Source: a virus (lineage: Duplodnaviria; Caudoviricetes). From it: a stretch of DNA of 54,824 bases. Every line of letters starts with the position of its first letter. Position 1 is the stretch's first letter. Positions 18,038 to 43,952 of the stretch are shown here, in pieces. The stretch lies in IMG/VR virus record IMGVR_UViG_3300025671_000082, positions 1 to 54,824 of that record; one strand, given 5' to 3'. The translations under genes and the position numbers were made by a program. A model generated the notes under the pieces. It was not told the DNA's origin, did no database searches, and saw only the letters and a program-made list of their open reading frames with translations.

Positions 18038-18226
18038 TTATACGATAAACCAACTACGGTTTAGGTCTTCAGTGTAGAGTTCTGCGTAGAACTCAAATTC
18101 AGAGTCGCCGGGATTAACCAGCACCTCAAGATACTCTTCCTCTGGACCAATAGCTTGGACATAGCAGGGTGCTCTTTCTCCTTCAAACTCTACCATGATT
18201 GTGCTTCCGATCTTAGGCAAAAGCAT
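18038..18226 (-). CDS. Small hypothetical protein
   Basis: ORF track. Confidence 0.55.
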   Translation of the reverse strand: MLLPKIGSTIMVEFEGERAPCYVQAIGPEEEYLEVLVNPGDSEFEFYAELYTEDLNRSWFIV

Positions 18227-20402
18227 AGTCAGACTCCTTTACAGCGTTTAAGTCTAGATTACCCTTTTCAGGGATTAGGTGGATAGCATCCATCTGCACC
18301 AAGATATGATACAAAGGATCCATCTCGTACAACTCTACAAACTTTTGACGGACGTGATTAAACATGTGTCCCATGTTACCAGCATGGCAACCAAAGGAGT
18401 CATGTACAACAGTCACTTCGTAGTCTGCATCATGTACAACCATAGTCAAATGCACAGCATCTAAACTATGAACAATATTTGGGGAAGCGCCTGTCTTTTG
18501 TTTAGTCTTTTTAAGTGTCGCTTCTTTCCATACTTGTATGTTAAGCTTAAGTATGTCATCCCCATAATAAAGCTGAACACGCTTCTTTTCAGGGTCTCTG
18601 TAAGAGTGTACAAAAGGAAACCCTGTTACAATTTGCTTATAGGTAATAGGCTTGTCTTTTTCATTCTCTTGTACAGCAAGCTGCTCAAACATACTAAGCA
18701 TTTTAGCGGGGCCGGGAAGCTTTTCATAGCACAAGGAATGGACAACACGACCTAACTTGTAGCCCCAAGAGTCATGCATGTCCCGGTGGTATTCCGATAG
18801 GTCACGAGTATCGTCAATGATTTGTTGACCCATACCTCGCTCAGTACCTCCGTAAGCTAGTGTCATAACATTTCGTTTGAGTGTTTTACGCCAGACCTTA
18901 CGGTCAGTAATCTTAGACCAATAGATAGGCATTGAGTCTTGAATATACTGATAGTTGTGGTTTTTAAACTTCCCAAACTTTTGCCAAGCAAGCCTGTTCT
19001 TTTCTGTCTTAGGTTGATACTTCTGCAAGTCTTCTAAGGTGCTTTGCCACTCTTCAAAGAACTTATCAAACTTGTCTTTGTCTGATTTCTTTACTGTTCC
19101 AAGCAACTCCTTTATTTTTGCTATTGTGTGGTCTGCAATAAACATATAAACATCACCGGGTAGGTCTTGAGGAACAAGATTAACCAAGGGAGCAATCTCT
19201 TCGTCTTTAGACATTGCTACTAGGTGTTGTACTCCGTTGTTTGACCCATCAATGTAAATAGGTAAGCATGAGGGGAAATCTTCTGTTGGCAAGCCATCAC
19301 CATGCCAGTTTGATAGCATAGAGAACTCGTAACAAGCCGCAAGAAAACATAACGGTTTATCAGCATCCATCCAAGCGTTATTACCAACAGGATCATCAAC
19401 ATAAAGCAAGATGTCGTCCATGTTGTCTTGAACCCACTGGACACGATCATCAAGAGAGACCTTATCGTTACCCCACATATTAGCCGTATGAACAGAAAGC
19501 CAGTATAACCCCTCTTCCCCTAGGGGTACTGGTGTGTCTAACAGCAGCAAACCTTTTGCGTTATCTGAAGACTGCTCATGAAGAAATGCTGTATTAGGGT
19601 AGATACGACCTCGGAAATCAACGTTGTAAAGGTGGTAGAAAGTGTTGTCTAAGTTTCTTTCTGCCAGAGCTTCAATGGCGTTGAGTTCAATTAGCAAAGA
19701 AGCTTTCTTTTCTTTGTCAATTTCTTTTGAATACTTGAAGGGTGTTTTTTTTAGGTTGCGTGTTTTCTTGAACACATCAAATACGAAAGAGTTAATACGC
19801 CAGCCGGTTTGTCCCAGCTTGTTTAACGTATCGATAAGATAAGACATGTCATTATTCTTTACCTGTTTAATCGCATTCTCGTGAGCGTGTTTGATTAGAC
19901 TAACCCCAGTTTGCTTGTGTAGAAACTTATTGTACTCCCAAGGTTCAGGAGCAGAGATAAGAGGAAACAAATCAACGTTCCCTTTGTCTACTAGATGCAT
20001 CATTTCTTGAATAGCATCCATGTTGCGGACTTGAATGTAGTAAGTAGGGTGTTTGTCGCGTTTCCCCTTTGAATTCTTCCTGTGTTCTCCTTTGTAAGAT
20101 AATATGTTCGTTTCGAAGTAAGAGATCAATATAAACCAACCGATGTGGCAAGCAGTAACAGCGTCTTCTGTCAGTTTTTCCCGACGCATAACTGCTGAAC
20201 CCATGCCTTTAACAAGGTTCGATAGGGTTGATTGTCTCTCAATTGCTTGCAGAACATGACCGTAAGTCATTTCTATTAAGTAAGTCGGATCTAGTTCTGC
20301 AACTTGATAAGCTTTGTTTCTTTTGTCAACAGAGCCAGTTTTACTTATCATTGATTGTTGTCTGAAGTTTAAGTCTTCAGCAAGTAGCTCTATAACATTC
20401 AT
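18213..20402 (-). CDS. Stand-alone single-subunit (T7-like) RNA polymerase, about 729 aa (ATG 20402 preferred over GTG 20444)
   Basis: DFRGRIY, motif A DGSNNGVQH, motif B RKTLKRNVMTLAYG, PNIVHSLDA, motif C HDSF; AAGGA SD before 20402. Confidence 0.95.
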   Translation of the reverse strand: MNVIELLAEDLNFRQQSMISKTGSVDKRNKAYQVAELDPTYLIEMTYGHVLQAIERQSTLSNLVKGMGSAVMRREKLTEDAVTACHIGWFILISYFETNILSYKGEHRKNSKGKRDKHPTYYIQVRNMDAIQEMMHLVDKGNVDLFPLISAPEPWEYNKFLHKQTGVSLIKHAHENAIKQVKNNDMSYLIDTLNKLGQTGWRINSFVFDVFKKTRNLKKTPFKYSKEIDKEKKASLLIELNAIEALAERNLDNTFYHLYNVDFRGRIYPNTAFLHEQSSDNAKGLLLLDTPVPLGEEGLYWLSVHTANMWGNDKVSLDDRVQWVQDNMDDILLYVDDPVGNNAWMDADKPLCFLAACYEFSMLSNWHGDGLPTEDFPSCLPIYIDGSNNGVQHLVAMSKDEEIAPLVNLVPQDLPGDVYMFIADHTIAKIKELLGTVKKSDKDKFDKFFEEWQSTLEDLQKYQPKTEKNRLAWQKFGKFKNHNYQYIQDSMPIYWSKITDRKVWRKTLKRNVMTLAYGGTERGMGQQIIDDTRDLSEYHRDMHDSWGYKLGRVVHSLCYEKLPGPAKMLSMFEQLAVQENEKDKPITYKQIVTGFPFVHSYRDPEKKRVQLYYGDDILKLNIQVWKEATLKKTKQKTGASPNIVHSLDAVHLTMVVHDADYEVTVVHDSFGCHAGNMGHMFNHVRQKFVELYEMDPLYHILVQMDAIHLIPEKGNLDLNAVKESDYAFA

Positions 20403-20581
20403 GCAATGGTTATTCCTTTTGTTGTGGACTAGGTGAGTTTTCACTCCACTTTGTTTAGGACTGTATAACCGTATTTTAGTCGTCTAGTTTGCCTGAAACA
20501 CCAAGACACACTACAATTACGAAAAATGCGGTTATCATACTTTAAATTGCTTTCTTAAAAAAAAATTAGTTGATTAAAGGT

Positions 20582-20618: not shown

Positions 20619-21014
20619 TTATTTTACACGGTTGAAGTAGGCGCTAGTCATGTCGTAGACTTTTACCCAGTTGTAAATTGAACCAACTGAACAACCAAAG
20701 ATGTCTGCTGCCATACGTGGGTTGAACTTAACTGCGACCTTACACGCAGCCATACGTTCAGCATCGGTAAAACCGCCGTAGTAACCGATTTTGTTTGCAC
20801 AAGCAGCTTCTACTTTTTGGATAGAACGCCACACAGTAGACCCCGATACCCCGTAGAGAGCACCCAACTGTTTATAAGGCATGAGGTTTATTTTGCGGAT
20901 TGCAATTGCCTCTTTAATTTGAGCGTCGGTCAGAGCGTTCAACTTGTTACCCCAGCCGGTCAAGTTAGGTGTCTTGCGGGTGTTTTTCATAGCTTTAGTC
21001 ATATTAATCTCCAT
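20619..21014 (-). CDS. Putative DNA-binding protein with two helix-turn-helix-like motifs
   Basis: YKQLGALYGVSGSTVWR and AADIFGCSVGSIYNW. Confidence 0.65.
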   Translation of the reverse strand: MEINMTKAMKNTRKTPNLTGWGNKLNALTDAQIKEAIAIRKINLMPYKQLGALYGVSGSTVWRSIQKVEAACANKIGYYGGFTDAERMAACKVAVKFNPRMAADIFGCSVGSIYNWVKVYDMTSAYFNRVK

Positions 21015-21018
21015 TCTT

Positions 21019-21840
21019 TTATAGGGTTAGTTGTCCGTAGTAGTTAGGGGCGATACCAGATTCTTCCCCGTAGTCAACGACTACAAAGAGTTCACCGTCA
21101 TAACAGATATCAGCCCAGATAACGGGTAGAGGTTGTTCAGGGTGACACCAGTAGTAGGTACCGTTTTCTTGCCCGTTATAGACAAAGCCGTCAAGGTCTA
21201 CTGGTTCAGGTAGCTTGTCCTCATGTTTTGCAAGGATCTGACCTGCTATGTTGAAGATGTTAAACATTACGTAGTCGCTCACGCAACTTCACCGAGACAG
21301 TTCTCAAGAACAGTGTTGTAAACTTGTTCAGGAGTTGCTTCGGGATTTTGATAAATAACAGAAGCAAGCTGAATAAACAGATCTACAAAGCGCGACTCTG
21401 ATGATTCATAGATAGCTTGGAAGACCGCCATAGGGTGTGTTCCATTATCACGAGCTTCTGCAGTAGACTCAGAAACATCACCGATGTAGTAGCATTCTTC
21501 AACTGTACGTACTTCTTGGGCAGAAGTTTTTTCACCGATAGTAGTCCACATTGAGATTGTCAGAGAAGCGATCAGAGCAAAGGCGGTGATAGATTTAAAG
21601 ATAGTTGTCATGCCGTGTTCCTTTCTATTACAGGCAGTTTTCTTTGAAAGCTTTAAAGTCAGCTTTCTCTTTTCGTTTTTCCTCAGTATCTCCAATTACA
21701 AGGAGAATTACCCATACAAGCAAAGGAGAAACAATAAGCCCAAACACAGCCCAACCAAAACCGTTCCGACCACGATTCTTTGCCATTTTGTAGGAAATGA
21801 TAGTAAAGATGATAATGAAGATTACGAGGTAGATATCCAT
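21019..21840 (-). other. Three small early ORFs (21019-21282, about 21279-21611 exported, 21628-21840 membrane protein)
   Basis: ORF track; hydrophobic N-termini. Confidence 0.55.
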
Positions 21841-21872
21841 CGTTGGTTTTCCTTTTTCGGTTTAAGTTTTCT

Positions 21873-21895
21873 ATTATAGAGGGGAATACTGCCCC
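21873..21895 (-). promoter_or_regulatory. Class B motif (TGGGG-N7/8-CCTCTATAAT), candidate early promoter upstream of the RNAP operon
   Basis: Four intergenic copies, all confined to the early region. Confidence 0.65.
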
Positions 21896-24708
21896 AGTTT
21901 TATGGAGTTTTAGTTTTTCTCCATTGGGTCGTGTGTAGGTAGATCAAAGTCGAGTGTATTAAACACTGCATCATCATCTTCAGGAATTAGCCCTAGATCA
22001 ACCGCACCTGATGTTACTGCTAGGAGCGGAGAGTGGTCCCCATAGATTGGATGCTCATAAAATACAAACCCGTATTCCCGGTGTATCTCTGTAGCATTCT
22101 GATCAATTAACCAACGACGATTATGAGAGGTTTTTACCCAGTGATCGAAGTCACAGTCTTTTCCATAAGGGTTCATTTTTCAGTCCCAGAGGTTTGTGAG
22201 GTTTTCAGCAACAAAGTACAAAGCTTCTTTTGCAAGTGCTACTTTGTGGTCTTCAAGTTTGTCTGATATAGTGTATTCAAGAAGGTTACTACCGTGAATA
22301 AGTAGTTCTTCCTGCCATACATGTACATTTGGGTATTCATACGGATAAGAGTTTATGTTCTTTGACCACTCTACCATACGCTCACCAAGCCATTGACAAA
22401 GAGATATGTCGAGATTAACGCAGTCTTTACCAAGTTCTGTTTTGTAGAAGTCCTTCATTATTCAATCCATCCTTTGTTTTTCAAGAGAGTGGGTTGTTCG
22501 CTTATAAGTTCACAAAACGATTCCCAAATTTTTCGTCGATTTCCTTCTGCTAAAGGTAGACCGTAAGGTGCCCCAATTATAGTCAACTTAACTTCTTGCC
22601 GAGGAAAACCGTGCTCTTCTGCGAGGTAGTCGTAGATGTTTTTTACAGGTTCATTCATCTTTGTATTTCTCCTCAATCTTCGCCATTTCCTCGTAGTAAG
22701 CAGTCTTGGCAGTTGCCACAGCCTCTTCATAAACAGGCCAATCAGACTTTATAGTCTCTTTATAAGCAGCCCAAGCAGATGCTTCGATCTCTTTGTAAGC
22801 AGCCAAGGCAGCATCAAGTTCTTCTTCCTTACTGATCATTTTTGTGTTTCCTCTTCCTGTAAAGCTTCTGCTTTGTTTTCTTAGAAGTCACCACCCTAGG
22901 TCTGAACTCAGGTGACTGCCAAAGTTCTTTCGCAAGGTGGTTTCTTGGTTTGATCTTTTTCGCCTTTCCCATGTTTAAACCTCGTAAGTAGGTGGTTAAG
23001 TTTAGCTCTGTATCAATCCACTACTTGTATAACTTCTGCGTTTTCCCACACGCTAAGTTCTTCCTTCAGTTCCTCAACACGGTATGAATAGGGTGGTCCT
23101 ATCTCCAATGCTCTCTCCAAGTAATGACTGCTATACCGTATTCTTTCACGTATTTTCTTCTCCGCCGCCTCTCTAGACCGGAAGATACTGTAGTGGCGAG
23201 GGTTCTCCACAAACGTATCAGAACGGACGTAGCCAAGACCCCCGGACATAATCACCCATACGCTAAGTTGTTCGATCATTGTTTAGCTCCTTCTTGATTA
23301 CTTTTACTGACCCAATCATATCTCCCAGATCGCCAAAGTCGCCTAGTTGCAGGTCGTCACCAAACAGCATCCTATTGAACCAATCGATGCTTTCCTCATC
23401 GTTACCGTGAATAAGATCAGCATCATAAGTCAGATCGATTACTAACCGGATTGTCTTGTCACTCATTTCCTACCTCTTAACTCCAAAGAAGGTGTTTTCT
23501 TCAATCTTCTGCATCAGTCGTCGTCCTTCGTGCCATCAAGGTAGAACCAGTAGTTGCGTTCCAGAAAAGTAGTGTGAAAGCGATAGTTAATTTCCTCTGG
23601 GTCTATATCCCCAAGAACTTCAAACGTCCAACCCTCGCCCAGAGAGAAGTGCCAATCACAGGAACCGTCTGAATAGGGGATGCGCTCACACTCCAGCTTG
23701 AGCAACCCCTCTAACGTAGTTGGTACAGTGACAGGTAGTTCGTTTATCCACATGTCCTCTAGCTTTTGTAGCTTTTCCAAGAAGAGGGGGAGGAGTTCTG
23801 CTTCATCAGCATAGCCAGCCAGCTTCTCCTCCAAGGTTTCTTCTTTCCCTTCTTCTTTAGCAGGGAACGTGAAGATATACACTTCCGTAAGTTCGTTGTT
23901 TGGTCCTTGAGGCCGCTTTGCGAATTGTACCTCCGAAACTCCTGCGTAAGACCCTTCAACCCCCATTCCGTAGGTGGCTTGCAATCCTGCAAAAAGGACT
24001 TCTTTGAGACGCTCTGGAGTAAAGGTGAGATAGAACGGTGGCAGAATTGAGTTGTTCTGTGTCATTTCTGTTAGTTTCCCGATACAAGAGTTATAGCAAC
24101 CATAGTCGCAGTTACAGCTAAAAGGAACAGGAGCCATTCAGCTTTGTTCATAGGTCGTTTAGTCCTTGATGTTCGTTTTTGTAAACCTCGTGGTCGAGTT
24201 CTTCGTAGGCTTTTTCGATTGCCAGCTTGAGTTGCAAAAGCTGATTACGACGTAACACCGTAGTACTATAATTATCGTATTCAGTAACACAAATCTGGAA
24301 AAAGGGTTCACCAGAGGATCGAAACACAGCGATTTTACAACCTTTAGTTTCTATTATTTCTTCGTGGAACACGGGTTCTTTCATTCCTTACTCCTTTGTT
24401 GTTTTAGTAACCACAGGCTTCTATGATTGACTTAGACGCTGAGTCCGCAGCAAAGACAGCCGTATTAGCTTCCTCTTCAGATAGGGTCAATCGGAACAAA
24501 CCTTTATCTGTGAACCACATTACAGCTTCTACTGTGATTGTGTAGTTGATTTGACTCGCCCAGACACGGTACAAGTTATGTTCACCGTCATCGTATAGCG
24601 CTGTGCCATCAGGGAAGCAGAAGATAACGTCAGAGGCGCTAGTAGCGTTGTGCGGTACTGCCGCGAAAAGGTAAGGGTTTTCGTAGCGTTCAGGTACTCG
24701 ATTAATGT

Positions 24709-24984
24709 TCATTTGTATCTCCATAAGTAGGTGTTTTGCCCGAGCAGGCCCCAGACCTTGCCCCAGATATTACCCCCGACATTGCCGTAGACATCGCCCT
24801 CGACATTACCCACGACATCGCCGTAGACATCGCCGCCGACATCACCCCAGACACTGCCATCGACACTACCTAAGACATCTCTGATGTGCAGATTGCCATC
24901 ATCATCCTCAATGAACGTGATTAGTTTTGCGAGTTGATCCAGTTGGGATTGGCTCAGGTTGGTTTCGAGTTTTTGTTCAGTCAT
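24709..24984 (-). CDS. G-[DSN]-V-x tetrapeptide repeat protein, paralog 1 (start reassigned to ATG 24984)
   Basis: 12-bp tandem repeats; N-terminus paralogous to 25028-25357; AAGGAG SD. Confidence 0.75.
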   Translation of the reverse strand: MTEQKLETNLSQSQLDQLAKLITFIEDDDGNLHIRDVLGSVDGSVWGDVGGDVYGDVVGNVEGDVYGNVGGNIWGKVWGLLGQNTYLWRYK

Positions 24985-25027
24985 TTTGTTTCTCCTTGAT
25001 TTCTTTCTTACATTCCTCAAGGTCGTC

Positions 25028-25357
25028 CTATTCGGACTCTTTGGCATTGCTTAAGACACTGCCCTCGACGCTGCCCCGGACACTGCCTAAGACACTGCCC
25101 CAGACACTGCCCCAGACACTGCCTTTGACATTGCCTCTGACATTGCCTCTGACATTGCCTCTGACATCGCCCACGACATCACCTAAGACACTGCCATCGA
25201 CACTGCCCTCGACATTGCCTCTGACATCGCCAAAGACATCACCTTGGACATCATCGATATACAGCTTGCCATCCTCGTCTTCGACAAAGGTGATGAGTTC
25301 CGCAATTTGATCCAGTTGGTCTTGCGTCATATTTGTTTTTAGTTTTTGTTCAGTCAT
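25028..25357 (-). CDS. G-[DSN]-V-x tetrapeptide repeat protein, paralog 2
   Basis: About 16 imperfect 12-bp tandem units. Confidence 0.75.
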   Translation of the reverse strand: MTEQKLKTNMTQDQLDQIAELITFVEDEDGKLYIDDVQGDVFGDVRGNVEGSVDGSVLGDVVGDVRGNVRGNVRGNVKGSVWGSVWGSVLGSVRGSVEGSVLSNAKESE

Positions 25358-26759
25358 TTTGGTTCCTTTCGTTTTTGTCTAAACCAGTGACTTACGTCGT
25401 CACAAGGATCGTCGGTTAGTCCCATTCTTCTACTTCACCCGCATAATACAACAACTCTTTCTCTAGTTGCTTATTACGCTTTATGCAATTTACATCTATT
25501 TTGTGGCCAAAGATTTCTAATTCAATTATTTCGATTTCTTTTGGCTCAAACCAACGAGGACTACCGGGAACCCCATAACTACAGAGTTCCAAGTAGCACT
25601 CGTAAGTTACAGTGAGGTCTTCAAAGTACTTACGACCAACTGCCATTACTCTTCTCCTTCTTTTACGTCCTCGTAGGTGTGACCCCACTTAGCATCTATT
25701 TCTTTTACTAGTTCCTTGAAAGAAACTTTCTTTAGGTATTCAGGGGATTTACGCTGTTTTGCTTTACTTTCGATTTTCATTTAACATCTCCATCTATACT
25801 CGCGAAGCTTGTTGTCATCTGGTTATTCCTCGTTGGGGTGGTTGTTTTAAATCGAGTAACACGCCACCAAGACGGCTGACCTTTATCGTTATGCACCAGT
25901 ACCATAGGAGCGCCAAAACAGCCTTTCGGCCACTCTGTACCGTTGTTAGGGTCAAACTCTAAAACAGTGTAGGTTTTCCCTATTGTTATATTTATGAAGA
26001 AGTCGCGGCTTGAAAATATCAACTTGTCCCCTTGTTTCATTCCTTGTCTCCTTTGTATTTTTTAAACTTTGAAACCGTTGAGCGGATATCATCGAAAAAA
26101 CCGTCAGAGGCTTTTACAAACTCAGAGAAAGGTTTGGCAGGGTTTGTATACACAGTGTACTTTTCACCAACCTTGTACCAGCTTGTTCCGGCGTGGACGC
26201 AAGTCACTTTCTTAGATGTTTCGGTGTAGTTGTTCATTTGGTTTCCAACCCATGCTCATCTTTGTCTTCTTTTAGCTTACCAAGCATCATTTCTGATACC
26301 GCAAGTTCGAAGTCCAAGACTTGTTCATATAGCTCTGGGTTATGTACTTCTAACGCAATCAAGACAGAAGAAAGAGTTCCTCTCAACTGTCCAACTTCTT
26401 TACAGTAGTCCCCTTCGGCGATTTCTTTGATACCTTCAAGAAGTTCGTTTCGTTTGATCTGAGTCATGCGTTTTCCTTTCTTTTATTTGGCTTTTTCTTT
26501 GAATTTGTTTTTGACAAGAAGCCAATAACATCATAAGAGAAAAACCCAATTATAGTCAATACGTGCATTTCATGAAGTGGCGATTGAAAGAACAGTGAGT
26601 AAAACATCGCTAGAGTTCCAAGAATAGGAAACTGTTTAACGAACCATTCTTTCTTGGTTACTGCATAAAACACAACAGTTAAAAACAGCCGGTAGCTAAC
26701 ACCAATTAGAAACAAATCCATTGGATTTTCCTTTTATGATGGGAGAAAGCCCGTACAAA

Positions 26760-27053
26760 TCAAGCGAAATGTACGGTAGCTTCCTCAACAAAGCAGGATG
26801 CTCTGTTTTCAAAGTATTCACGGGGAAGTACCCATTCAGCAAACGTGCCGTGGATAGCGTCTCCTTCACATACACCACGGTATGCGTTAAAGTGAGGGGG
26901 TAATTCGTCCATCACAATCTCTATGACAGCGCCTTTAGAGTATTTGGCGGCGTTGTCGTAAGAGTCAGTCCAGTGAGAGAAGTCACGGGTCTGAATGTCG
27001 TTTGCCAGCTCGTTTGCTTCACGAGGGCAGGTGCCACGGAAAAACTTGTACAT
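26760..27053 (-). CDS. Hypothetical protein with possible ADP-ribosyltransferase-like motif order
   Basis: FFRG...SHWTDS...A..Y...EWV. Confidence 0.4.
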   Translation of the reverse strand: MYKFFRGTCPREANELANDIQTRDFSHWTDSYDNAAKYSKGAVIEIVMDELPPHFNAYRGVCEGDAIHGTFAEWVLPREYFENRASCFVEEATVHFA

Positions 27054-28336
27054 GGTAGTCTCCTTTCTTTGCGTTATATTTCTACTGTGCGGATAAAACC
27101 GCTGCCGTTATCGGCTATACACTCGATAGCGTCTTCGTACGCTCTGTATGTATCGACGACGTAGACTTCACCGTCTTCCTCGTCGTGATCAAATACGAGG
27201 TAAAATTTAACGGCCTTTACTTCTTCCATATTAGGCATGGTAGTACTCTCGCTTAGTATAGTTGAGGTTCAGTGTGAGCAGTTTTACACCATGCTCAGGG
27301 TGTGAGTATTAGATGCAGCCTTTTTCGACTAACACCTCATACTCGTTGGGTCTTTTAACCTGTAACCCTACAGGCCATAACGATGGATGCATCGTGCCAA
27401 GGTGGTACTCACTACCACTCTTAGTACGAACTTTACGATCGTTATGAACAGCTACGATGCGAGTGGTTATCCACTCTACACCATTGAGTTTCCCTCTCAG
27501 GACAACTCCCCCACCGCTGAGTGGAGAGAATTTATAGTCTTCGATGACTCGCATGACAGCTTCCTTTCGCATGACAGCTTCCTTTCTTATTCGACTAGTT
27601 TTCTTGCGAGGAACTTAGCGTAGTCTCGCATTGCTTCTTCAGCGACTTCGATGGGTACGCAAGCGGCTATACCGTGTCCATCACAATATCCCAGCAAAAA
27701 ACCCTCAAGAAAAGGGTGATCTCCTGTATAGATTTCTACCTGTCCTTCACCGCAACAGTGTTCCTTACTGTTCTGGATAGAGACCTTTACACCTAAACCT
27801 ACAGGGTATGCGTGAAGGAGAGATAGGCTCCCGTTGGATTGATAGGGTGGTGTTTTGAGGTGTTCTTTAACTGTCAGCATTTGCTTTTGTTCCCATTCTG
27901 TGCAGAAAAAAAAAGTAGAAAGGTTAAGAGGGGCCAGCCAAAGCCAGCCCCTTTTGTTAGTCCTCCGCAGGGCCGAAGAGATCGGCTGCATATGCTGCCG
28001 CCTCCTGCCAAGCCTCATCCGACTCCTCCCCGAAAAAAGGATCGCATAAACGCTCACCGACCTCAAGAGCAAACTCCCGCTCGTGTGCGCACGGGACCGC
28101 TTCGAGCAGAGCCAGCCACAGGACTTCCTTGTCGTGCCGAGCATCCCAAGCCCCTGCGCGGGCCATGGCAAGCTCATGCTTCAGAGATAGCACCTCTTCC
28201 TCGGTGTAGGTAGAGTTGACAACCTCCAGCGCTTCGGAACGCCAAGTGGAACCTGTGAGGCAGTTCCAAACCTTTGCAAAGATTGACATGATGTCCTCCT
28301 TTTCTCTGCGTTAATACGTTCTAATTTGATTCTATC

Positions 28337-28359
28337 ATTATAGAGGGTAGAAAAACCCC
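28337..28359 (-). promoter_or_regulatory. Class B motif
   Basis: GGGGTTTTTCTACCCTCTATAAT upstream of ORF 27957-28289. Confidence 0.65.
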
Positions 28360-28433
28360 AGTTTTTATTGTACAAAGCCCGTACAATAATTTTTCCGAGA
28401 GGCCACTGGTATAGCAGCCCCTCGGATTTTATT

Positions 28434-28820
28434 TTAGTCCATGAATACGCCGACCGCACAGCCGCCGTAATACCCAACAGTCGCCAGCATGGGTCCAGTT
28501 ATTACAGTAGACCACCCAACTGAGCTTGCAGTGGCCCCCGTAATAAATGGCGCAGACAGCGCACCAGACCAGCCGACAGTAGAACCTGCGGCAACGCCGG
28601 GGCCTACGATCGGAGAAGCGGCAACTACGCCAATACCGATCAAAATTGATCCGGCGATACCGGCACCAATACCAATTGCGGCGTCTGTATTAGAGCATTC
28701 CGCAGTCTGTTCGAGACTATTTGTCTCCAAGTAATACTGGTTATTTTCCAGTCGATTGTCTGCGATTGCAGGTGTTGCCATTGCGATTACCAGTGCGGTA
28801 GCTGCGATTGAGGCTTTCAT
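28434..28820 (-). CDS. Exported glycine-zipper-like membrane protein (start reassigned to ATG 28820)
   Basis: AAGGAG SD, signal peptide, GxxxG-rich hydrophobic segments. Confidence 0.65.
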   Translation of the reverse strand: MKASIAATALVIAMATPAIADNRLENNQYYLETNSLEQTAECSNTDAAIGIGAGIAGSILIGIGVVAASPIVGPGVAAGSTVGWSGALSAPFITGATASSVGWSTVITGPMLATVGYYGGCAVGVFMD

Positions 28821-28845
28821 GAAGATTCTCCTTCTTGGTTTCTTC

Positions 28846-28868
28846 ATTATAGAGGGCCAAATTTCCCC
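28846..28868 (-). promoter_or_regulatory. Class B motif
   Basis: GGGGAAATTTGGCCCTCTATAAT. Confidence 0.65.
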
Positions 28869-28955
28869 ACTTTTTTTGGTCAAATTTATCAATTTTTAGT
28901 ATAAAATACTCCCAAATTTGGTAAAAAAGCCACCTCAAATAGAGATGGCTGTAGT

Positions 28956-29264: not shown

Positions 29265-29289
29265 TATGGAATCCTTTCGTACTTTCTTC

Positions 29290-29311
29290 ATTATAGAGGC
29301 CAAATTTCCCC
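29290..29311 (-). promoter_or_regulatory. Class B motif, first element of the early region
   Basis: GGGGAAATTTGGCCTCTATAAT, near-identical to 28846-28868. Confidence 0.65.
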
Positions 29312-29338
29312 AATTTTTATGTATTATACGGGCTTTGT

Positions 29339-29360
29339 GGCCACCCCCGAAGGGATGACC
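29339..29360 (-). terminator. UUCG hairpin after tape measure, lacking a U-tract
   Basis: 21/22 identical to the hairpin at 17364-17385. Confidence 0.6.
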
Positions 29361-36019: not shown

Positions 36020-36525
36020 TAATTAGCCCTCCACCACATACCGCCAACACCTGTTGCACCCTTGCGAACAAGCGGTCGGATAGGTTTAAGAGCAGTAGAT
36101 GGTTTCATAGGAACTCGTGTTGTGTCACCATTGCTATCTGAGAGACTGATAGACCCTACAGAGATAGACTCAAAGGTCTGAGTCTGCCCCATAAGGACGT
36201 CTTCATTGTCTACCAGATGCAAAGCTTGTTCGTATATAGCAGTCTTAACACGACTCGGTACTTCGGTTTCAGCTATAGTCACTTGAAGACCCAAACGGTC
36301 ATCATAGTAAATAGCGTTCTTCCGAGGCCAAGCCAAGGCTTGAGAGGAACTAACAGCAGAACCAATCCAAGCATTATCATCAATCAGCGAAGTAGCTGTG
36401 ACAAGAGCTTGTTCTTTGAGTTCGTCTTCAGCGGCAACCCAGTTGGCACTATCGATACGAGTCTCAAAGTATGTATCAGCGTCTGCTATCGAAACGTAGC
36501 TGTTTGTATTGAGTACAAGTGCCAT
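36019..36525 (-). CDS. Head-tail adaptor (DnaT-like family)
   Basis: NSYVS...AD.YF and QALAWPR motifs; follows capsid. Confidence 0.75.
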   Translation of the reverse strand: MALVLNTNSYVSIADADTYFETRIDSANWVAAEDELKEQALVTATSLIDDNAWIGSAVSSSQALAWPRKNAIYYDDRLGLQVTIAETEVPSRVKTAIYEQALHLVDNEDVLMGQTQTFESISVGSISLSDSNGDTTRVPMKPSTALKPIRPLVRKGATGVGGMWWRAN

Positions 36526-36545
36526 TAGTTCACTCTCCTAGTCTA

Positions 36546-37646: not shown

Positions 37647-37673
37647 TTTATTAGTCCTTTAGAATGCTATAAA

Positions 37674-38363: not shown

Positions 38364-38438
38364 GCACAGCTTGGGTTATATGTGTAAGTTTGAGTCACAG
38401 ACTCTATTAATTAGTTGAAGGCGTAAATATTACAAATA

Positions 38439-41400
38439 TTATGGCCCAATTCCATAGAAATCAAATCCCGGTTTTATCGGTTCAATGATTTCTTGATAAG
38501 TAAGTGCGTCAGGTCCAGACTGTAGCAGCCCATCTCGTTTAGCACGTTCTAAGTATTTTCGGTAAGTCTTTCTAGACAAACCCTGACGTCTCATTTCTTT
38601 GAGAGTTTTGTCAATAGTGCCTGACTTCAGTGCATCTGCATACAACTGGCGTAAAGCAAATTTCGCAGGAACTGCGTCACCTAAGTTTGTAAAGAACGCG
38701 TCGTGGATAGTACCCGTATCGATATTGTTCTCTCTTCCCCAAAGGTGAAATCTTCGGACAAGCACAGCGTCATTACTGTGGTTACCGTTAACACCAAGAC
38801 CAATAGCAGCGTCCTGTATTGATTGCTCAGACAGAAGTTTACCGTCTTTTGCAGGTGCTTCATATATATTGAACACTTTCTGCCCAGTGACAGGATCAGT
38901 GAAATCAATCCTTACTTGTTCCTTTGTACGATAGCGTTGCATCATTGTTTTACCATCGAAAGTTACCCAAGGAATATCTGTTGTCTGTGCTTCACGAGCA
39001 AAATCTTTTGCAATGTCTTTCCAGAACTTGATAAACTTACCAGTAACAGGAACCTCTGTTTCAAGATGACCAGACATAATTGATGAAATCTTATCGAATA
39101 GCCGAGTACCTACAAGGTCTCCGGTTTCATCTCTAAGCTTAAACAAAAATGTATGCATCTCTTCAGAGTTTTTAATTCCATCTCTGAACTCACCTTTAGC
39201 GGTTTCATACAGAGACTCTGTGATAGGTTTGCCTGACTTAGAGGCTAGTACCACATCTTTCTTAATGTCGCGTAATTCGTCAATACGTGTCCAATTTTTT
39301 CTGTCCATTTCAAAGCTAATCTTAGCATCAATAGCCTTCTTAAACTTTTCAACTTCTTTAGATGAGATAGAGACTTTACCTTTTTTAGCAAGCACCTTTG
39401 CAAAAGCGTCCGCAATATTTTTAGCTTTGGTAGCCGATCCGGCCCCATAGAATGTTACCCAAATTATTCAGCAAGGTAGTCACTCCTTGCCCGTGTAAAA
39501 GGCTCTACCGGAAGAAAACCAACGTTTAATTGTTCTATGAGAAACGTTATGAGCCTTAGCAGCATTGCGTAAAGAATGATATGTTTTGCCATCTACCGAT
39601 ACTTTTTTTGCGCGATGATGAGATTTGGACATTCTTTTCGACTGTGCCTTTTTAGCTTCTTCGGACCAAACGCCCTTAGCAGGTTGTTTACCTTTTGATC
39701 CAATTCTACGGTAGTAAGAACGTACCGCTTCTGTTTGTTTTCTCATTTGGTCTTCTGTGTTTTTCCGTCCTGACAAATGTTCTTTTGAAAATTTAGAATA
39801 TTCTTCTCTCAACCTTTTGAATTGAGTCGAACCTATTAGCTTATCTTTACCACAGTTCATAAATCTGAACGCATAGGTCATTTCAAAGTTATTATGTATT
39901 TTCCAAAGCAAAAAGTGAGCAAGGTAATGTTCTCTTGCTGTCAGGTAAGTGATGTTATCACTCTCATCAGAGCCGCCCATAGATTTAGGAATAATGTGAT
40001 GACCTTCTGTGTAAATATCAGAGGGTTTCACATTACGTCCGTATTTTCGTATGAGTTCATCGTAATGGTATTGGTAGTTCATTTATTTTCCTTTTTTTTC
40101 ACTGCTATATGTTTCCATATAGTTTAGACTATATCATCACTTGACTTGTTTCAGCTTACCCATAAATACTGCCCAAGCAGGATTAGAGTAATACCTCTTC
40201 CATTGTGTTAAAGTTTTAACAATGAATGGCCTTTCAGCCCATAGTACAAGTGCTCTGCGCTTCCATCTGACATTTAGATGTACTCCCTTCGGATAGTCGT
40301 TGAACGTTCCCCTTGTGGGGCTTCGCTGCTGATTGCCTACGTCATTACACGTTTAGGTTTTCCAGCAATTCACAGAGTTTAAAGAACACAGATTTAAGTT
40401 TATGTTCTGGTTTTTAGCAGCTTTCATTAAGTCAGACCAATCAAGGTCTAATTCAGCAAGTTCAGGTATTGCCAAGAACTCAGGGTCGTTGACAGTGCGT
40501 TTAGCAATTTCGTCGTACAGACGCTGTTTCTTATCGGTTTGAACAACGTTAGAGAGGTTAGCAGCCGCTCTATCTTTTGTGGAAAGAGCAATAATCTGCG
40601 CACCAGAAGAACTAGCGTCGTTTTCAATCATCATCTTGGTCTTGTACTTAGCAAGCTTTCTGATATCTGCTGAATTAAACTGCCGTTTATCTGTTGGCAT
40701 CTTACCATCCATGTGACGGTATATACGAGTGTATTCTAGAGCCAAACGAGATACTTTGCCGATGTGTTCATCATCAAGACCCATTTGATGGGTTTTCTCA
40801 ATGAACTTACGAACCTGACCTGCTCTTTGGGAAGGCTTGTCTAGCATATAGCTACCAAGCTCTAGTAAGTCATCTTCTACAGCTTTAAATGCTTTTAACC
40901 TACCTTGCACTGTAAGAACATCTAGTGGGTTCCCGACAGCGGCACCTATTTGAGTCATAAGCTCTTCTACTGCGTCTGGTGTCATAGAAACACCTTTTGC
41001 CGTATTTAAGAACGGACGCACGGTTTCACCCTTAGTTGGAGTTAAAAGACCACGGTGATAAACACGACCTCGGAAGTCAATAGAGGCGTCTACCGAGAAG
41101 GCTTGATTACGCTGTCTATGGAATTTAGCTGTTGCAAGAACACCTCTTCCATCATTACCACGAGCATCGATAAACAGTTTCTTCCACTCGTTCTTTTCAA
41201 GCAACGCAGCATCACCTGATCGTTTAGCTTTAAAGTAGATTACTTCTTCGGCAAAGTCAAAGAAATCAGGGTCTACTTGGTACTTCACTGAGTTAGCGTG
41301 ATTAAGCATTTTAGCTATATCACGATCAATCTGCTTTGGATCATAGTCAGCAAAGACGTTTTCAGATACGACAGGTTGAGAGGTTTTACGATTACGAGCA

Positions 41401-43952
41401 TCAAAGTAAACTTTTTCTCCCGCCTTAGCGTAAAGCTGATCACGTCTATGGTATACCCCAAACCGCCTTGCAGCACGAGTCTTAGCATTAGCAATTTGTA
41501 GTTGTCTTAAATCACCATCAACAATTTGAATTTGTTTAAACACAGAAACACCGCGTAAAGACTTATCGCGAGAAGCTAAACCTGTAGCCAAGTCAATAGG
41601 AGAGCTTGTGCCACTATCACGAAAAACATCAGTACGGATTATCCCTTGGCGCTCAAGATTTGCAAGTATTCTGGACCCATCCTTATGAAACTCTTTTAGT
41701 GTTTTAGATCTAAAAGGATTTAAACTACCAAGCTCATCATCAAACAGCTGACCAATCTTAATAGCAAGCTGATCGTAGTCTGCACCGTCTGCAGCGGCAA
41801 TCATTTCCATAGACTTAGACAAGGCTTTAATGGTTTTGTCGTTTATGGTTTTAATAGCCTTTTCTCGGTAAAAATTAGTAACCCTTTCTCGGTAAAAATT
41901 AAATAAAAAATCTAGAGCAATCGCGTCAAAATCTGCGATGCTGGGTACGTCAGAAGCAGAAAGTTTTTCTGAAAGTGTTTCTATAATAGATTCAAGGGTT
42001 GTTTCATCCAAAAACTCACCGTCTAAAATTTTACGGGTATTACCTCGGAGTTTAGAAATTTGTTGAGTGATCCAAGAGTCGCTTGGAAGTTTTTCTTTGT
42101 TTAGCTTTTTCCATAGTTTATAACCGGGAAGTTTTTCAAGAAGAAACTTCTTAGCATTAAACTTCGGATAACGCCTAATGATAGGCTGTGTGTAAGCAGC
42201 GATAGGGGCCTTGCGATTGTAGAAGGCTCTACGAGCTAAGTTAGCACCTTGTTTTTCAGGCCAACGAGCAATGTAGCGGTTATCTTTGATTTGAGAGTCA
42301 ACTAACTTAGAGATTGTAAACTTTTTACCGAGAATGTCAACCTCTGGATCGTCTTTTAAACGACTGTTAAGCGTACCAAACATCCTACCTCGCTCAACAG
42401 CGCGGTTAAACAGTGTAGTACCTTGGTCCTGAACAGCATTCAAAGTAAACTTACGGAATACAGAAACAGGGGTCCCCCAGACTTCTCCGGTTTTGTTAGC
42501 CCGAGAAAAAGTTTGACGAAGAACATCAACAACAACTGATCGTTGGTTTACAGAAAGAGACCTGTCTAAACTATTTACAAAATCTCGTATATAGTCTTGT
42601 TGTTTAGTTGTTAGAGCATACTGTTCAAAAGAAAGCTTCTCAAGCCTCTCCGCTAGAAACTCTGGATCAGGAGGTTGTAAATGCTTGTAAGGCCCATCCC
42701 CATAGTCTGTCCCATCGGCGCTAAAGGCAGCACCCTTGCGATCGTTTTTGAAATAGCGCCTTGAACCTTGTTTTTGAGACAAAGAGTTTCCCTTGTAATC
42801 GACAAGGGACAAAGCTTGTGCGTTTTCACCAGCATCATTTTTAAAGAAATCCTTTAGTGCTTCGGTATTAGCCTTAGAACTCATAAGTTCATCTGGGGTG
42901 TTAAACCTAAGCGTACCTGTGTATTCATTGGTTGTAGTAGGGCGTCTAACTGTTCTATTAGCACGACGCATTAGTCCTCGAATACTCAAAGCCTTACCTT
43001 CAGGAGAAACAAACTCTTCAGCCTTCAGTCGTCCTTTTTGAAACAACGAGGCTTGACGCTCACCACCTAGTAGTTTAGTTTGAACTTCAGTTGTTTGACG
43101 CCTTAGCCATTCTCCATAGGTCTTAATCTTTGAAGGTTGACCATCCAGGTCTGCGGAATGAACTTTGTTTAGTTTCCTTGGTTTAATTTTATCTGAGGTC
43201 ACGCCTTCCAGAGCTTCTTTAGACTTTACTACCGGAACAAGAGTTGATCGACAGTTAAAGTGAAGCGGCGGTTGGAAACGGTTATCATCAACATCATAAA
43301 CCTTACCATTGTGATGAGTACAGATAGGGCTGGTACGGCTATCAAGAATAGCAGTAAACATGTAGCCTTCAAACAATTCTTTGTTTTGTTGTACAACATC
43401 ATTCAAAGCTTGAGTTTGAGCCGCTGTAATAGAAGTTCTTGTTAGTGTCTTGGCTTGATGCTCTGTAATCTTAGTTGTTTTCAGAACATCATTAATAATT
43501 TCGTTGTTAGCTTTCCCCGCAGCAAGTCCAGCTTTAACTTTAGATTGTATGCGGACTAGTTCTCCAGAAGAGATATTGCTAACGTTTCTAGTAATAGATT
43601 TAGCACCCTTAATGTTTGGGCCAGTAATCTCTTTCACAAGATCAGCAGTCTTAGGTTTTTGTGTACGATAAAACCCTTTCACTTCCGCGTGAAGGTTATT
43701 ATAGTGAAAACTCTTATTTGCCTTTGTAAATTGAGTAACAGAGCCTACAATAGACTTGTTAATTTCTTTAGCAAAACGGTTAACTTCAGGTTTCACATCG
43801 CTCCGAATGTTCTTCTTTAAAACTTCTGCTAAGTTTTTACGATGTGTTCTTAGTATTTCACGTTGTGCTTTTTGTTGACCATTCTCGTAGAGTCGAACAT
43901 CAGTGCTGTGATCTACGATCCTGTCAAAAATCTTTTCGTTAATTGTAGACAT
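38439..43952 (-). CDS. MuF (SPP1 gp7-like) domain fused to single-subunit RNA polymerase; exons 40402-43952 and 38439-39459; 1523 aa spliced; candidate virion RNAP
   Basis: MuF motifs LDSRTSPIC and PPLHFNCRS; RNAP motifs DFRGRVY, motif A DASSSGAQ, motif B KAAKNQNMVTFYG (restored by splicing), NGNHSNDA, motif C IHDAF. Confidence 0.9.
39460..40401 (-). mobile_element. Group I self-splicing intron, 942 nt
   Basis: 5' exon GAACAU pairs with IGS GUGUUC (U.G at the splice site); P AAUUGCUGGAAA, Q AAUCAGCAG, R GUUCAACGACUA, S GAUGAUAUAGUCUA; P9 GAAA hairpin; terminal G; removal restores frame and motif B. Confidence 0.93.
39480..40082 (-). CDS. Intron-encoded HNH homing endonuclease with NUMOD-like C-terminus
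   Basis: HHIIPKSMGG..DN...LTAREH..AH motif; located after P9. Confidence 0.9.
   Translation of the reverse strand: MNYQYHYDELIRKYGRNVKPSDIYTEGHHIIPKSMGGSDESDNITYLTAREHYLAHFLLWKIHNNFEMTYAFRFMNCGKDKLIGSTQFKRLREEYSKFSKEHLSGRKNTEDQMRKQTEAVRSYYRRIGSKGKQPAKGVWSEEAKKAQSKRMSKSHHRAKKVSVDGKTYHSLRNAAKAHNVSHRTIKRWFSSGRAFYTGKE

Follow-up and report, generated by a model that had tools for sequence, protein, structure and literature searches.

The placement and evolution of two promoter families, here called class A and class B, suggest that a freshwater phage may transcribe its genome without the host polymerase. We analysed the whole virus record IMGVR_UViG_3300025671_000082 (54,824 nt, hereafter the window), in which every gene lies on the minus strand. 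Its source is a freshwater, long-tailed phage (siphophage virion module) related to Naomiviridae. On balance, we favour a two-step, largely self-sufficient transcription programme that employs two T7-fold single-subunit RNA polymerases (RNAPs), in which a polymerase fused to a MuF domain (MuF-RNAP) would act first and a stand-alone RNAP would follow.

Two RNA polymerase genes and a group I intron

The initial annotation had proposed two single-subunit RNAP genes, and both were recovered: PF00940 was matched on 18213-20444, and the second gene carries MuF and polymerase parts. The main features of this part of the genome, all on the minus strand, are as follows.

44013..45659, minus strand: portal gene and tRNA-Thr, followed directly by the MuF-RNAP gene in the same class-A-driven late operon
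40402..43952, minus strand: MuF-RNAP exon 1, with the MuF domain (aa 135-238), a helical linker and the N-terminal part of the polymerase through motif A and the first half of motif B (delimited by PF04233, homologs and the splice point)
39460..40401, minus strand: group I intron of 942 nt (Rfam RF00028) in polymerase motif B, between ..KNQN and MVTFYGAG..
39480..40082, minus strand: HNH homing endonuclease ORF of 200 aa within the intron (PHROG 655 homing endonuclease, E 2.9e-39)
38439..39459, minus strand: MuF-RNAP exon 2, which extends from the second half of motif B across the specificity-loop region and motif C to the C-terminus (PHROG 414 RNA polymerase, E 3.9e-9)
29339..29360, minus strand: hairpin GGTCATCCC-TTCG-GGGGTGGCC immediately behind the tape-measure stop, a mark of the border between late and early regions
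28928..28950, minus strand: terminator-like hairpin and T-run after the HNH gene
20619..28820, minus strand: early block of about 30 small ORFs, mostly without a known family, syntenic with gp096-gp081 of DSS3_VP1
18213..20444, minus strand: stand-alone T7-like single-subunit RNAP of 743 aa, last gene of the early block (PF00940, PHROG 414)

The stand-alone RNAP scored 268.3 bits against PF00940 (curated cut-off 22; E 1.6e-79) and matched PHROG 414 with an E value of 1.2e-133; the annotated RNA polymerase of the roseophage DSS3_VP1 is 47% identical to it. Its specificity-loop region shows 51-60% identity between lineages, as against 48-55% overall. The two polymerases of the window had been described as unrelated-looking, which overstates their distance. 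The best BLASTP comparison between them gave an E value of 0.036 at 21% identity, but DxRGRxY, motif A and motif C still align; they share the T7 fold and are therefore distant paralogs rather than unrelated proteins.

The MuF-RNAP gene had been modelled at 40353-43952, which captured exon 1 but missed the group I intron and exon 2 (39459-38439). The intron scored 103.1 bits against the RF00028 covariance model (gathering score 50; E 1.1e-25). The phage occurs in metatranscriptomes X1 and X7-X13. The joint of 39459 to 40402, which skips 942 nt, was observed in all three metatranscriptome runs compared (X1, X10 and X11) and was absent from the single DNA run (X2). Precise excision of the intron occurs in nature and restores the MuF-RNAP reading frame. 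The making of MuF-RNAP requires splicing of this intron, and the gene offers a natural case in which a group I intron interrupts catalytic motif B of an RNA polymerase and is spliced in the environment. A like split pattern (gp47 / HNH gene / gp49) was seen in EBPR siphovirus 1, where neither a stand-alone RNAP match (tblastn, E up to 1e-3) nor a repeated motif was found in 49.5 of 54.5 kb.

The spliced ORF of 1523 aa contains no stops and aligned end to end with the intron-less homolog P0002 (83%). Its architecture is MuF, linker and polymerase, the polymerase cargo spanning about 1100-1180 aa. The MuF domain was well above threshold (PF04233, 65.3 bits against a cut-off of 29.6, E 1e-17), and the portal gene adjoins. 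Each exon by itself fell under the PF00940 cut-off of 22 bits (17.2 and 18.0 bits), and the intron-less homologs P0002 (35.6 bits) and L021 (25.8 bits for the domain) exceeded it; PF04233 and PF00940 occurred together in 37 of the 51 homologs found, most of them of about 1480 aa. A profile search against the PDB matched T7 RNAP (E 6.6e-8); the alignment brings together DxRGRVY, motif A (NDASSSGAQ), K..YG of motif B and motif C (IHDAFF) of the two enzymes. The residues aligned to the T7 active-site motifs, D731, K799, Y807, G808, H1055 and D1056 (L021 numbering), are invariant in 23 sequences. An AlphaFold model (pLDDT 80.3) represents an intron-less homolog about 61% identical to the window protein, not the window protein itself. 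This model matched residues 39-882 of T7 RNAP with a Z score of 29.0 and an rmsd of 3.6 Å over 520 residues, including the N-terminal domain and the specificity-loop hairpin; the Z scores were 24-26 for mitochondrial RNAPs and 15.9 for the N4 virion RNAP (vRNAP). According to the model, the polymerase part of MuF-RNAP is a full T7-like fold.

The MuF-RNAP region that aligns to the T7 specificity loop shows 70-75% identity where the polymerase domain shows 42-45%. Relatives of the protein were found in at least 556 IMG/VR stretches, and conservation spans from the window to DSS3_VP1 (40% identity), whose counterpart, the intron-less gp108, bears no annotation beyond 'head morphogenesis'. MuF/SPP1 gp7 proteins are located inside the capsid, bind the portal and are ejected. 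In the portion of a published survey used here, MuF is described as carrying effector domains into host cells (PMC5512222). From the MuF domain, we infer that MuF-RNAP is packaged in the capsid and ejected; in a search of the main text of PMC8323127, the word 'virion' did not occur.

The gene order is common to the window, DSS3_VP1 and G010, a record estimated to be 100% complete. At the portal locus, the DSS3_VP1 order of portal, tRNA-Asn and a 1463-aa gene annotated as 'head morphogenesis' matches that of the window, and the tape-measure gene of DSS3_VP1 also has the GGTCATCCC-TTCG-GGGGTGGCC hairpin behind it. The replication module of the window is T7-like, with a gp2.5-like SSB (PHROG 112) and a family A DNA polymerase, a primase-helicase and a 5'-3' exonuclease, the last with Pfam matches. 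The window also encodes ThyX, so the dU-for-dT DNA of Naomiviridae may not be shared. The main texts of the searched accounts of DSS3_VP1 and DSS3_PM1 contain no mention of RNA polymerases (PMC8323127, PMC12669031), and neither a MuF-RNAP fusion, nor a pair of RNAPs in Naomiviridae, nor the transcription logic considered here was found described in the openly available papers searched.

Two promoter families with different evolutionary behaviour

Class A corresponds to the minus-strand sequence AAATACTTGACCCTTATGA. Allowing up to 3 mismatches, five matches were found in the window, all of them exact and on the coding strand, against 0.01 expected.

45906..45924, minus strand: class A copy 1, exact, between the endolysin and portal genes
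45794..45812, minus strand: class A copy 2, exact, about 135 nt before the portal start
18006..18024, minus strand: class A copy 3, exact, between the RNAP gene (189 nt past its stop) and the gp2.5-like SSB gene
10264..10282, minus strand: class A copy 4, exact, before the 5'-3' exonuclease gene, inside the replication block
261..279, minus strand: class A copy 5, exact, at the left end of the record

A double site of class A type precedes the portal gene also in DSS3_VP1 and G010, and a class A site occupies the position of copy 3 in 11 of the 13 relatives' loci examined. Six distinct class A sequences pair with six types of specificity loop in the stand-alone RNAP. One loop type is common to six records, and the same six have one promoter in common (GGGCGGAATAATGA); record L006 has kept the window-type loop and the window-type promoter despite a flank from another lineage. 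As a contiguous coding-strand element some 20 bp long whose sequence varies together with the specificity loop of the RNAP, class A is of T7 type. Because class A and this loop change in step between lineages, we assign class A to the stand-alone RNAP, to which it very probably belongs; this assignment had already been proposed. The RNA contigs of two of the three RNA runs (X10 and X11) break at copy 1, whereas the DNA contig is continuous, which is a weak hint, as contigs cannot show starts.

Class B is a two-block element with the consensus AAAAA(G/C)TG(A/G)G(A/G)-N11-TCTATAA(T/C)-GAAGAAA. Its 13-nt core alone is weak, with 4 matches against 1.11 expected and 4 reached in 5 of 100 shuffles. 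A 40-nt matrix, trained on 22 aligned sites that include three of the window sites and not the fourth, picked out exactly four window sites at 14 bits or more; they score 33.4-57.0 bits, and every one is on the coding strand.

29281..29320, minus strand: class B copy 1, 33.4 bits, with a spacer one base shorter, upstream of the small HNH gene
28837..28876, minus strand: class B copy 2, 57.0 bits
28328..28367, minus strand: class B copy 3, 42.4 bits
21864..21903, minus strand: class B copy 4, 36.4 bits, 1.4 kb upstream of the RNAP gene

All four copies are located between the tape-measure stop and the RNAP gene, and a start codon with its ribosome-binding site follows each one at a distance of 25-50 nt. 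The placement described in the initial annotation was thus borne out, with five exact class A copies and four class B copies that are all in the early block, the last one upstream of the stand-alone RNAP gene. It also holds that the MuF-RNAP gene is in the late operon driven by class A and that the stand-alone RNAP closes the early block driven by class B.

Among MuF-RNAP records with at least 9.3 kb downstream, class B was present in 15 of 18, always behind the tape-measure gene, and across 83 loci it gave 13 matches on the coding strand and none on the other. It is nearly invariant across lineages, roseophage DSS3_VP1 included, whose polymerases are only 42-47% identical, these lineages being related to each other rather than independent. 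The conserved positions comprise the flanks C-A/C-TC before the hexamer and GAAGAAA after it (a purine-rich start), as well as the block 11 nt upstream. The hexamer reads TATAAT in all four window copies and in 18 of the 22 aligned sites; in the other four it reads TATAAC (three in G010, where this applies to all three class B sites, and one in L028). No class B site has a −35 hexamer or an extended −10, and the −35 position reads AAAACT or AAAAGT. In the early block, sigma-70-like two-hexamer matches were at chance level (16 against 18.8 +/- 5.2 expected), and no class B site was among them. A hairpin reading of class B in the style of N4, suggested by GGGG..CCCC in the window copies, was rejected because relatives read TGAGA..GCA without compensatory changes.

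RNA contigs break between 28801 and 28966, near class B copy 2, in all three RNA runs while the DNA contig is continuous, again a weak hint. The only adapter-joined RNA end near copy 2, at 28825 (run X11), lies about 20 nt downstream of the motif and not at the expected +1. Contig breaks or adapter-joined RNA ends, at 28825, 28966, 44097 and 45922 altogether, are hints only, since contigs cannot show RNA starts, and stretches that no contig covers count neither way. A joint from 29360 to 45794 in one X11 contig, the 22-nt side of which falls within the repeated class A motif, was read as an assembly or strain effect.

Co-occurrence in relatives, a check put forward in the initial annotation, was found for the two polymerases: the stand-alone RNAP is present in 11 of the 12 records chosen for MuF-RNAP, the twelfth being a fragment estimated to be 48% complete. 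The pairing of class B with MuF-RNAP was not discriminated by this comparison. The record G003 (estimated 76% complete) has one class-B-like site (27.7 bits) and no MuF-RNAP match, and its portal, capsid and tape-measure genes are also missing; as the whole head module is absent, it says nothing either way on this co-occurrence. A scan for the G003-type class A motif returned 15 IMG/VR and 24 JGI metagenome stretches, none with a portal or MuF match. Pelagibacter phage Kolga represents the only lineage that is complete and has neither the RNAP fusion nor class B. Its early region gave 19 sigma-70 matches against 19.6 expected and is too AT-rich for a meaningful scan.

The proposed cascade and its alternatives

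In the proposed cascade, the 1523-aa MuF-RNAP would be made late, be put into the capsid by means of its MuF domain, and exit with the DNA at the next infection. The injected enzyme would start transcription at class B, right behind the terminator that closes the late operon, and this would give the small early genes and then, last in the block, the stand-alone RNAP. The stand-alone RNAP would in turn read the lineage-specific, T7-style class A (AAATACTTGACCCTTATGA in the window), a step that is well supported. Transcription from class A would cover the replication and nucleotide-metabolism genes and the operon of portal, MuF-RNAP, capsid and tail genes. As the MuF-RNAP gene belongs to this class-A-driven operon, the next generation of the virion polymerase would be produced.

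The best reading of the circumstantial evidence, towards which we lean, is that the virion MuF-RNAP reads class B. Class B probably belongs to it: the promoter is kept family-wide while the specificity-loop region of MuF-RNAP is unusually conserved, a −35 element is missing, one lineage has TATAAC, the GAAGAAA start is conserved, and the MuF-RNAP gene adjoins the portal gene in the late operon driven by class A. Of the cascade originally drawn for this genome, the layout and the class A step hold; the step from MuF-RNAP to class B is circumstantial, drawing on conservation, the missing −35 and TATAAC. The chances are about even that widespread aquatic siphophages (Naomiviridae and relatives, at least 556 IMG/VR stretches) are, more generally, independent of the host RNAP, with a MuF-delivered T7-fold polymerase and a nearly invariant two-block early promoter followed by a second, fast-evolving RNAP with lineage-private promoters.

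A serious rival, which we hold to be improbable without dismissing it, is that class B, with its A-rich upstream block, serves the host sigma-70 RNAP as a '−10 only' early promoter, leading to the stand-alone RNAP and from there to class A. MuF-RNAP would then have another job, such as DNA pull-in, replication priming, or transcription from sites not yet recognised. T7 itself uses this scheme, and TATAAT, the universal −10 hexamer of sigma-70, is found in 18 of the 22 aligned class B sites and in the fourth window copy. Recognition by sigma-70 is constant across bacteria, which could likewise explain a constant class B despite differing hosts, and the partial record of G003 offers a class-B-like site with no MuF-RNAP found. 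However, no class B site has a −35 hexamer or an extended −10, and in the three G010 sites the −10 hexamer ends in C, its last position being the one least tolerant of change for sigma-70. Conservation also reaches the flanks (C-A/C-TC and GAAGAAA) and the block 11 nt upstream, which sigma-70 is not known to read, and a conserved polymerase of about 1100 aa in a head protein would be left without an obvious use.

We consider it unlikely that the stand-alone RNAP reads both class A and class B, with MuF-RNAP or the host RNAP providing a low-level kick-start or nothing. The two classes have similar ends (..TTATGA in class A and ..TATAATGA in class B), similarity also links block 2 of class B to CCTTATAAAGAAGAA, the G003-lineage form of class A, and there is a precedent in the KP34 RNAP, reported in the part of the source drawn on here to read two unrelated promoters (PMC6834552). 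Yet the specificity loop and class A change together while class B is constant, so that a single loop would need to alter its specificity for class A and retain that for class B. In addition, since class B precedes the RNAP gene itself, the first reading of class B must fall to a different enzyme. That MuF-RNAP is not a working virion polymerase, being a decaying fusion, a fold-only structural protein or a protein that is never packaged, appears very unlikely. The interruption of the gene in the window, which leaves each exon under the Pfam cut-off (17.2 and 18.0 against 22 bits), would fit such a loss, but the intron is spliced precisely in RNA and the 1523-aa ORF is restored, the residues aligned to the T7 active-site motifs are invariant in 23 sequences, and relatives occur in at least 556 IMG/VR stretches, with conservation as far as DSS3_VP1.

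Comparison with known systems

Virion-borne RNAPs are known from N4-like podophages, crAss-like phages, jumbo phages and P23-45. If the cascade is true, siphophages of ordinary size would have one more, separate way to carry out early transcription without the host, by fusing a T7-fold polymerase to MuF. This would be an independent invention of the virion-RNAP strategy from T7-like parts, with a new orthogonal polymerase-promoter pair. The two defined promoter-polymerase pairs may be of use as orthogonal expression tools. Abundant in freshwater and in the sea, the group also contains the only dU-DNA roseophages in culture; the cultured relative DSS3_VP1, which grows on Ruegeria pomeroyi, makes the cascade open to cheap experiments.

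The window resembles T7 (Autographiviridae) in that its early block ends with an RNAP gene, contiguous promoters some 20 bp long co-vary with the specificity loop, and the replication module is similar. The early genes of T7 are read by the host RNAP from −35/−10 promoters, and there is no polymerase in the T7 virion. The window differs by its siphophage virion module and its second, MuF-fused polymerase. With the Naomiviridae (roseophages DSS3_VP1 and DSS3_PM1) it shares gene-for-gene synteny, 47% identity of the RNAP, 40% identity of MuF-RNAP and a near-identical class B; in contrast to DSS3_VP1 gp108, the MuF-RNAP gene of the window has an intron. The arrangement of an N-terminal MuF and a C-terminal enzyme, with presumed co-delivery with the DNA, is also that of the MuF-fused effectors (polyvalent, polymorphic-toxin-type) in the survey cited above, the consulted part of which reports no N4-like virion RNAP modules outside N4-like phages and prophages and lists no MuF-RNAP fusion (PMC5512222). 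Unlike those effectors, the cargo in the window is a complete T7-like polymerase.

The likeness to N4 (Schitoviridae) lies in a T7-superfamily RNAP in the virion that is thought to start early transcription, in early genes that encode a second T7-like RNAP, and in promoter classes that set the cascade. The early promoters of N4 are DNA hairpins with a short stem and a 3-nt loop; class B of the window has no conserved inverted repeat, and class A covers both middle and late genes. The polymerase of the window is fused to MuF, the homolog model is nearer T7 RNAP (Z 29.0) than the N4 vRNAP (Z 15.9), and the protein does not have the gp50-like architecture of N-terminal injection and C-terminal encapsidation domains. 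In the portions of the N4 literature used here, the order is the virion RNAP gp50, RNAPII and then the host RNAP, which reads the late genes, and the vRNAP is described as a 3500-aa protein with its own injection and encapsidation domains, acting at DNA hairpin promoters in a short-tailed phage (PMC4496689, PMC13434306, PMC5512222).

The initial annotation saw N4-like logic in a long-tailed phage. The resemblance stands, but the case would not be the first, as Thermus phage P23-45 is a precedent. This phage is long-tailed, and a fusion of a virion structural protein with an RNAP is described, in the part of the report considered here, as reading its pre-early genes, including the gene of a second, non-virion RNAP (PMC10770324). 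A long tail, an RNAP fused to a structural protein and a second RNAP gene are thus common to both. As far as that part of the report goes, the P23-45 enzymes are relatives of the two-barrel RNAPs of cells, and the tape-measure protein serves as carrier, whereas the window has T7-like single-subunit enzymes and MuF as the carrier. By analogy, the logic proposed for the window resembles that of N4 and P23-45, built from different parts.

Genome organization and the two phage polymerases

The 54,824-bp IMG/VR virus record is linear, with an estimated completeness of about 80%, and its sequence is present in runs labelled freshwater metagenome. All real genes are carried on the minus strand. In transcription order, they encode a tail fibre, PhoH, distal tail proteins, a 1389-aa fibre, holin and endolysin; then portal, tRNA-Thr, MuF-RNAP (a MuF head protein fused to a polymerase), capsid, tail and tape-measure proteins; then a block of small ORFs followed by the stand-alone RNAP; and finally a T7-like replication and nucleotide block (gp2.5-like SSB, family A DNA polymerase, exonuclease, primase-helicase, ribonucleotide reductase, ThyX). 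This order matches, gene for gene, that of roseophage DSS3_VP1 (Naomiviridae); its RNAP shares 47% identity with that of the window, and its 1463-aa 'head morphogenesis' protein shares 40% with MuF-RNAP.

18213-20444, minus strand: stand-alone RNAP gene
40402-43952, minus strand: MuF-RNAP, exon 1
38439-39459, minus strand: MuF-RNAP, exon 2
45924, 45812, 18024, 10282 and 279, coding strand: class A copies 1-5 (two before the portal gene, one directly after the stand-alone RNAP gene, one before the exonuclease gene, one at the left end)
29320-29281, 28876-28837, 28367-28328 and 21903-21864, coding strand: class B copies 1-4

With its PF00940 match (E 1.6e-79), the stand-alone RNAP is an ordinary T7-family member; its likeness to MuF-RNAP is barely recognisable (BLASTP E 0.036). 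Profile, Pfam and structure-model evidence indicates that the MuF cargo is a polymerase. A PDB search with a profile of 23 members of the MuF-RNAP family found T7 RNAP (E 6.6e-8), with DxRGRVY, motif A and motif C aligned, and intron-less relatives pass the Pfam cut-off. The AlphaFold model of one such relative (about 61% identity to MuF-RNAP, pLDDT 80.3) superimposed on residues 39-882 of T7 RNAP with Z 29.0 and an rmsd of 3.6 A over 520 residues; mitochondrial RNAPs scored slightly lower (Z 24-26) and N4 vRNAP clearly lower (Z 15.9). Judging from database sequences, the fusion is common: relatives are encoded in at least 556 IMG/VR stretches, and 37 of 51 database homologs have both Pfam domains. 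The stand-alone RNAP accompanies it in 11 of 12 records chosen for carrying the fusion, the twelfth being a fragment.

The initial annotation had correctly recognised a fusion polymerase, but the reading frame continues past an intron into a second exon. ORF 40353-43952 ends (..AAKNQN) at a point past which intron-less homologs, about 1480 aa long, go on with MVTFYGAG.., and at this break, which falls in polymerase motif B, lies a group I intron (Rfam, 103 bits) carrying an HNH homing endonuclease gene. With the splice placed at 40402|39459, the intron measures 942 nt; three metatranscriptome runs, each of a different study, have contigs with exactly this joint, and the DNA run lacks it. Splicing yields an uninterrupted ORF of 1523 aa, which aligns over the full length with an intron-less relative (P0002) at 83%. 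The same arrangement (a head protein, an HNH gene, then a further ORF) occurs in EBPR siphovirus 1. The intron is also polymorphic at 39504-40051, where 546 nt of the HNH ORF give way to 474 other nucleotides in a minority variant of the DNA run (depth 11 versus about 121); metatranscriptome run X10 has loose ends at both boundaries.

RNA is truly present in the RNA runs: the splice joint is confined to them, and their contig depth is uneven, roughly 12-20 across the early block, 43 over portal and exon 1, and 70 over the stretch that runs from capsid to tape measure. Depth of the DNA-run contigs is flat (116-134).

Several further features were observed. The ThyX thymidylate synthase gene (2978-3748, PF02511, E 4.4e-33) occurs in a relative of the dU-DNA Naomiviridae, and the phage was also recovered from apparently ordinary DNA runs (run kind being a guessed label); its thymidine may thus be canonical or differently modified. 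A 76-nt direct repeat (3833-3908 and 4604-4679, 88% identical) flanks a 214-aa ORF of no known family (3948-4592). The first copy encodes ..TCSGDSCEIVDLT and then a stop, the second falls in the 3'-terminal part of the ribonucleotide reductase ORF, and the arrangement looks like an inserted gene cassette with a duplicated 3' end of that gene. A free-standing SegE-type GIY-YIG homing-endonuclease-like gene (9053-9613) lies between the exonuclease and primase-helicase genes. Repeats are found in two paralogous early ORFs (24709-25357; 109 and 112 aa, largely 12-nt tandem repeats encoding G-(D/N/S)-V-x tetrapeptides, with no match in a family search), in the 1389-aa fibre gene (47697-48995; a 30-nt, 10-aa unit present about 40 times, besides a fibronectin type III domain), and, as an extended array of 9- and 12-nt units (GCAGCA/GCATCA types, plus strand), at 1964-2212 within ORF 1911-2609 (232 aa, no family). 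Both the window (tRNA-Thr, 44013-44087) and DSS3_VP1 (tRNA-Asn, 21063-21138 of its record, L017) have a tRNA gene separating portal from MuF-RNAP; an adapter-joined RNA end at 44097 (metatranscriptome run X11), just upstream of the window tRNA gene, possibly stems from tRNA processing.

Class A promoters and the stand-alone RNAP

Class A is present as five exact 19-nt copies (0.01 expected). Related lineages have their own class A sequence at the same genomic positions.

Class A sequences in the window and related records
Window and L006: ..TACTTGACCCTTATGA
L007: ..TACTTCGCCCTAATGA
G014: ..TACTGCCGCCTAATGA
G006, G007, G009, G010, G011 and G017: ..TAGGGCGGAATAATGA
G013, G016 and DSS3_VP1: ..CG(C/T)TAAAGA types
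G003: TACCGCCTTATAAAGAAG

The sequence types found in the stand-alone RNAP region that aligns to the T7 specificity loop divide the records into these same groups. In L006, the flank is of the G009 type, yet loop and promoter are both of the window type. Together, the coincidence and this case are the signature expected of a T7-like enzyme with its own promoter. Class A is thus very probably read by the stand-alone RNAP, as the initial annotation had proposed, an assignment well supported by this covariation across lineages. Contigs break at class A copy 1 in two of three RNA runs, a weak hint, and contigs cannot show starts; DNA contigs are continuous there.

In the window, hairpin-like sequences rich in G+C (10230-10262, 45760-45793, 200-260; for example, GAGGCCCCATCGGAGGG and GGGAGGCCCCCTT) lie immediately downstream of several class A copies; the class A analogues in DSS3_VP1 are followed by such sequences too. 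These may be stem-loops at the 5' ends of transcripts.

Class B promoters and their reader

The four class B copies lie between the tape-measure stop and the stand-alone RNAP gene. Their anatomy, deduced with the help of relatives, is an A-run with TG(A/G)G(A/G), a spacer fixed at 11 nt except in one window copy, where it is 10, then TCTATAA(T/C), and a purine-rich GAAGAAA. Copy 1 precedes a 96-aa free-standing HNH homing-endonuclease-like gene (28956-29246) and then a terminator, and looks like a duplicated promoter that arrived with the mobile gene. Contigs break at 28801-28966 (terminator and copy 2) in all three RNA runs, which is again a weak hint; DNA contigs run through. At 28825 there is an adapter-joined RNA end, some 20 nt downstream of copy 2 and off the expected start.

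Unlike class A, class B is almost unchanged in all lineages compared, including DSS3_VP1, which has a marine alphaproteobacterial host and polymerases only 40-47% identical to those of the window. The hairpin closing the late operon is also kept in sequence between these two phages. Class B lies 8.8-9.8 kb behind the MuF-RNAP gene in 10 of the 18 loci with at least 9.3 kb downstream and further along the whole record in five more, the other three contigs being too short to tell; because the lineages are related, such counts do not represent independent events. Over 83 loci, there were 13 coding-strand matches and none on the opposite strand. A weakness of the case for MuF-RNAP as the reader is that Kolga, a Pelagibacter phage, is the only complete record without the fusion; class B is also absent there. 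A further weak point is record G003, with a class-B-like site and no head module; that module was sought in IMG/VR and metagenome contigs and not recovered. The two polymerases and two promoter classes of the initial annotation are confirmed; the intron, exon 2 and conservation across the family extend the picture.

That the injected MuF-RNAP reads class B is the best available reading, which we hold with modest confidence. The region of MuF-RNAP aligned to the specificity loop is 70-75% identical and free of indels, against 42-45% for the polymerase domain in the same lineages, and this conservation would favour it as the reader. The corresponding region of the stand-alone RNAP is conserved no better than the whole protein and varies between lineages; the constancy of class B argues against that enzyme. 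As a family, MuF proteins reside in the capsid and exit with the DNA. The MuF-RNAP gene lies beside the portal gene in a class-A-driven late operon, and this place, with the fusion to MuF, fits a virion enzyme.

Host sigma-70 RNAP could equally account for a constant class B, since sigma-70, a conserved factor, has TATAAT as its consensus. However, the sites have neither a -35 hexamer nor an extended -10, the early block holds no more sigma-70-like matches than chance would give, three class B sites in the complete genome G010 read TATAAC, and conservation extends past the hexamer to outside bases and the start region. We consider reading by the host enzyme less likely, though a serious alternative.

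Comparison with known systems

The main texts of two Naomiviridae papers (PMC8323127, PMC12669031) do not mention RNA polymerase, and the sections available of a polyvalent-protein survey report virion RNAP modules in N4-like phages only (PMC5512222). No account of a MuF-RNAP fusion was found in the literature searched.

The N4-like logic of the initial annotation holds for the order of the cascade: as in N4 and P23-45, a virion polymerase would transcribe early genes that yield a second polymerase, the first step being one we infer for the window phage. It does not extend to membership of the N4 system, as the window phage has no hairpin promoters, gp50 architecture or evident late role for host RNAP, and the modelled MuF-RNAP fold appears closer to T7. 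Compared with P23-45, both the enzyme family and the carrier protein are different. Compared with T7, the window phage has a second polymerase fused to a structural protein, as well as non-canonical early promoters.
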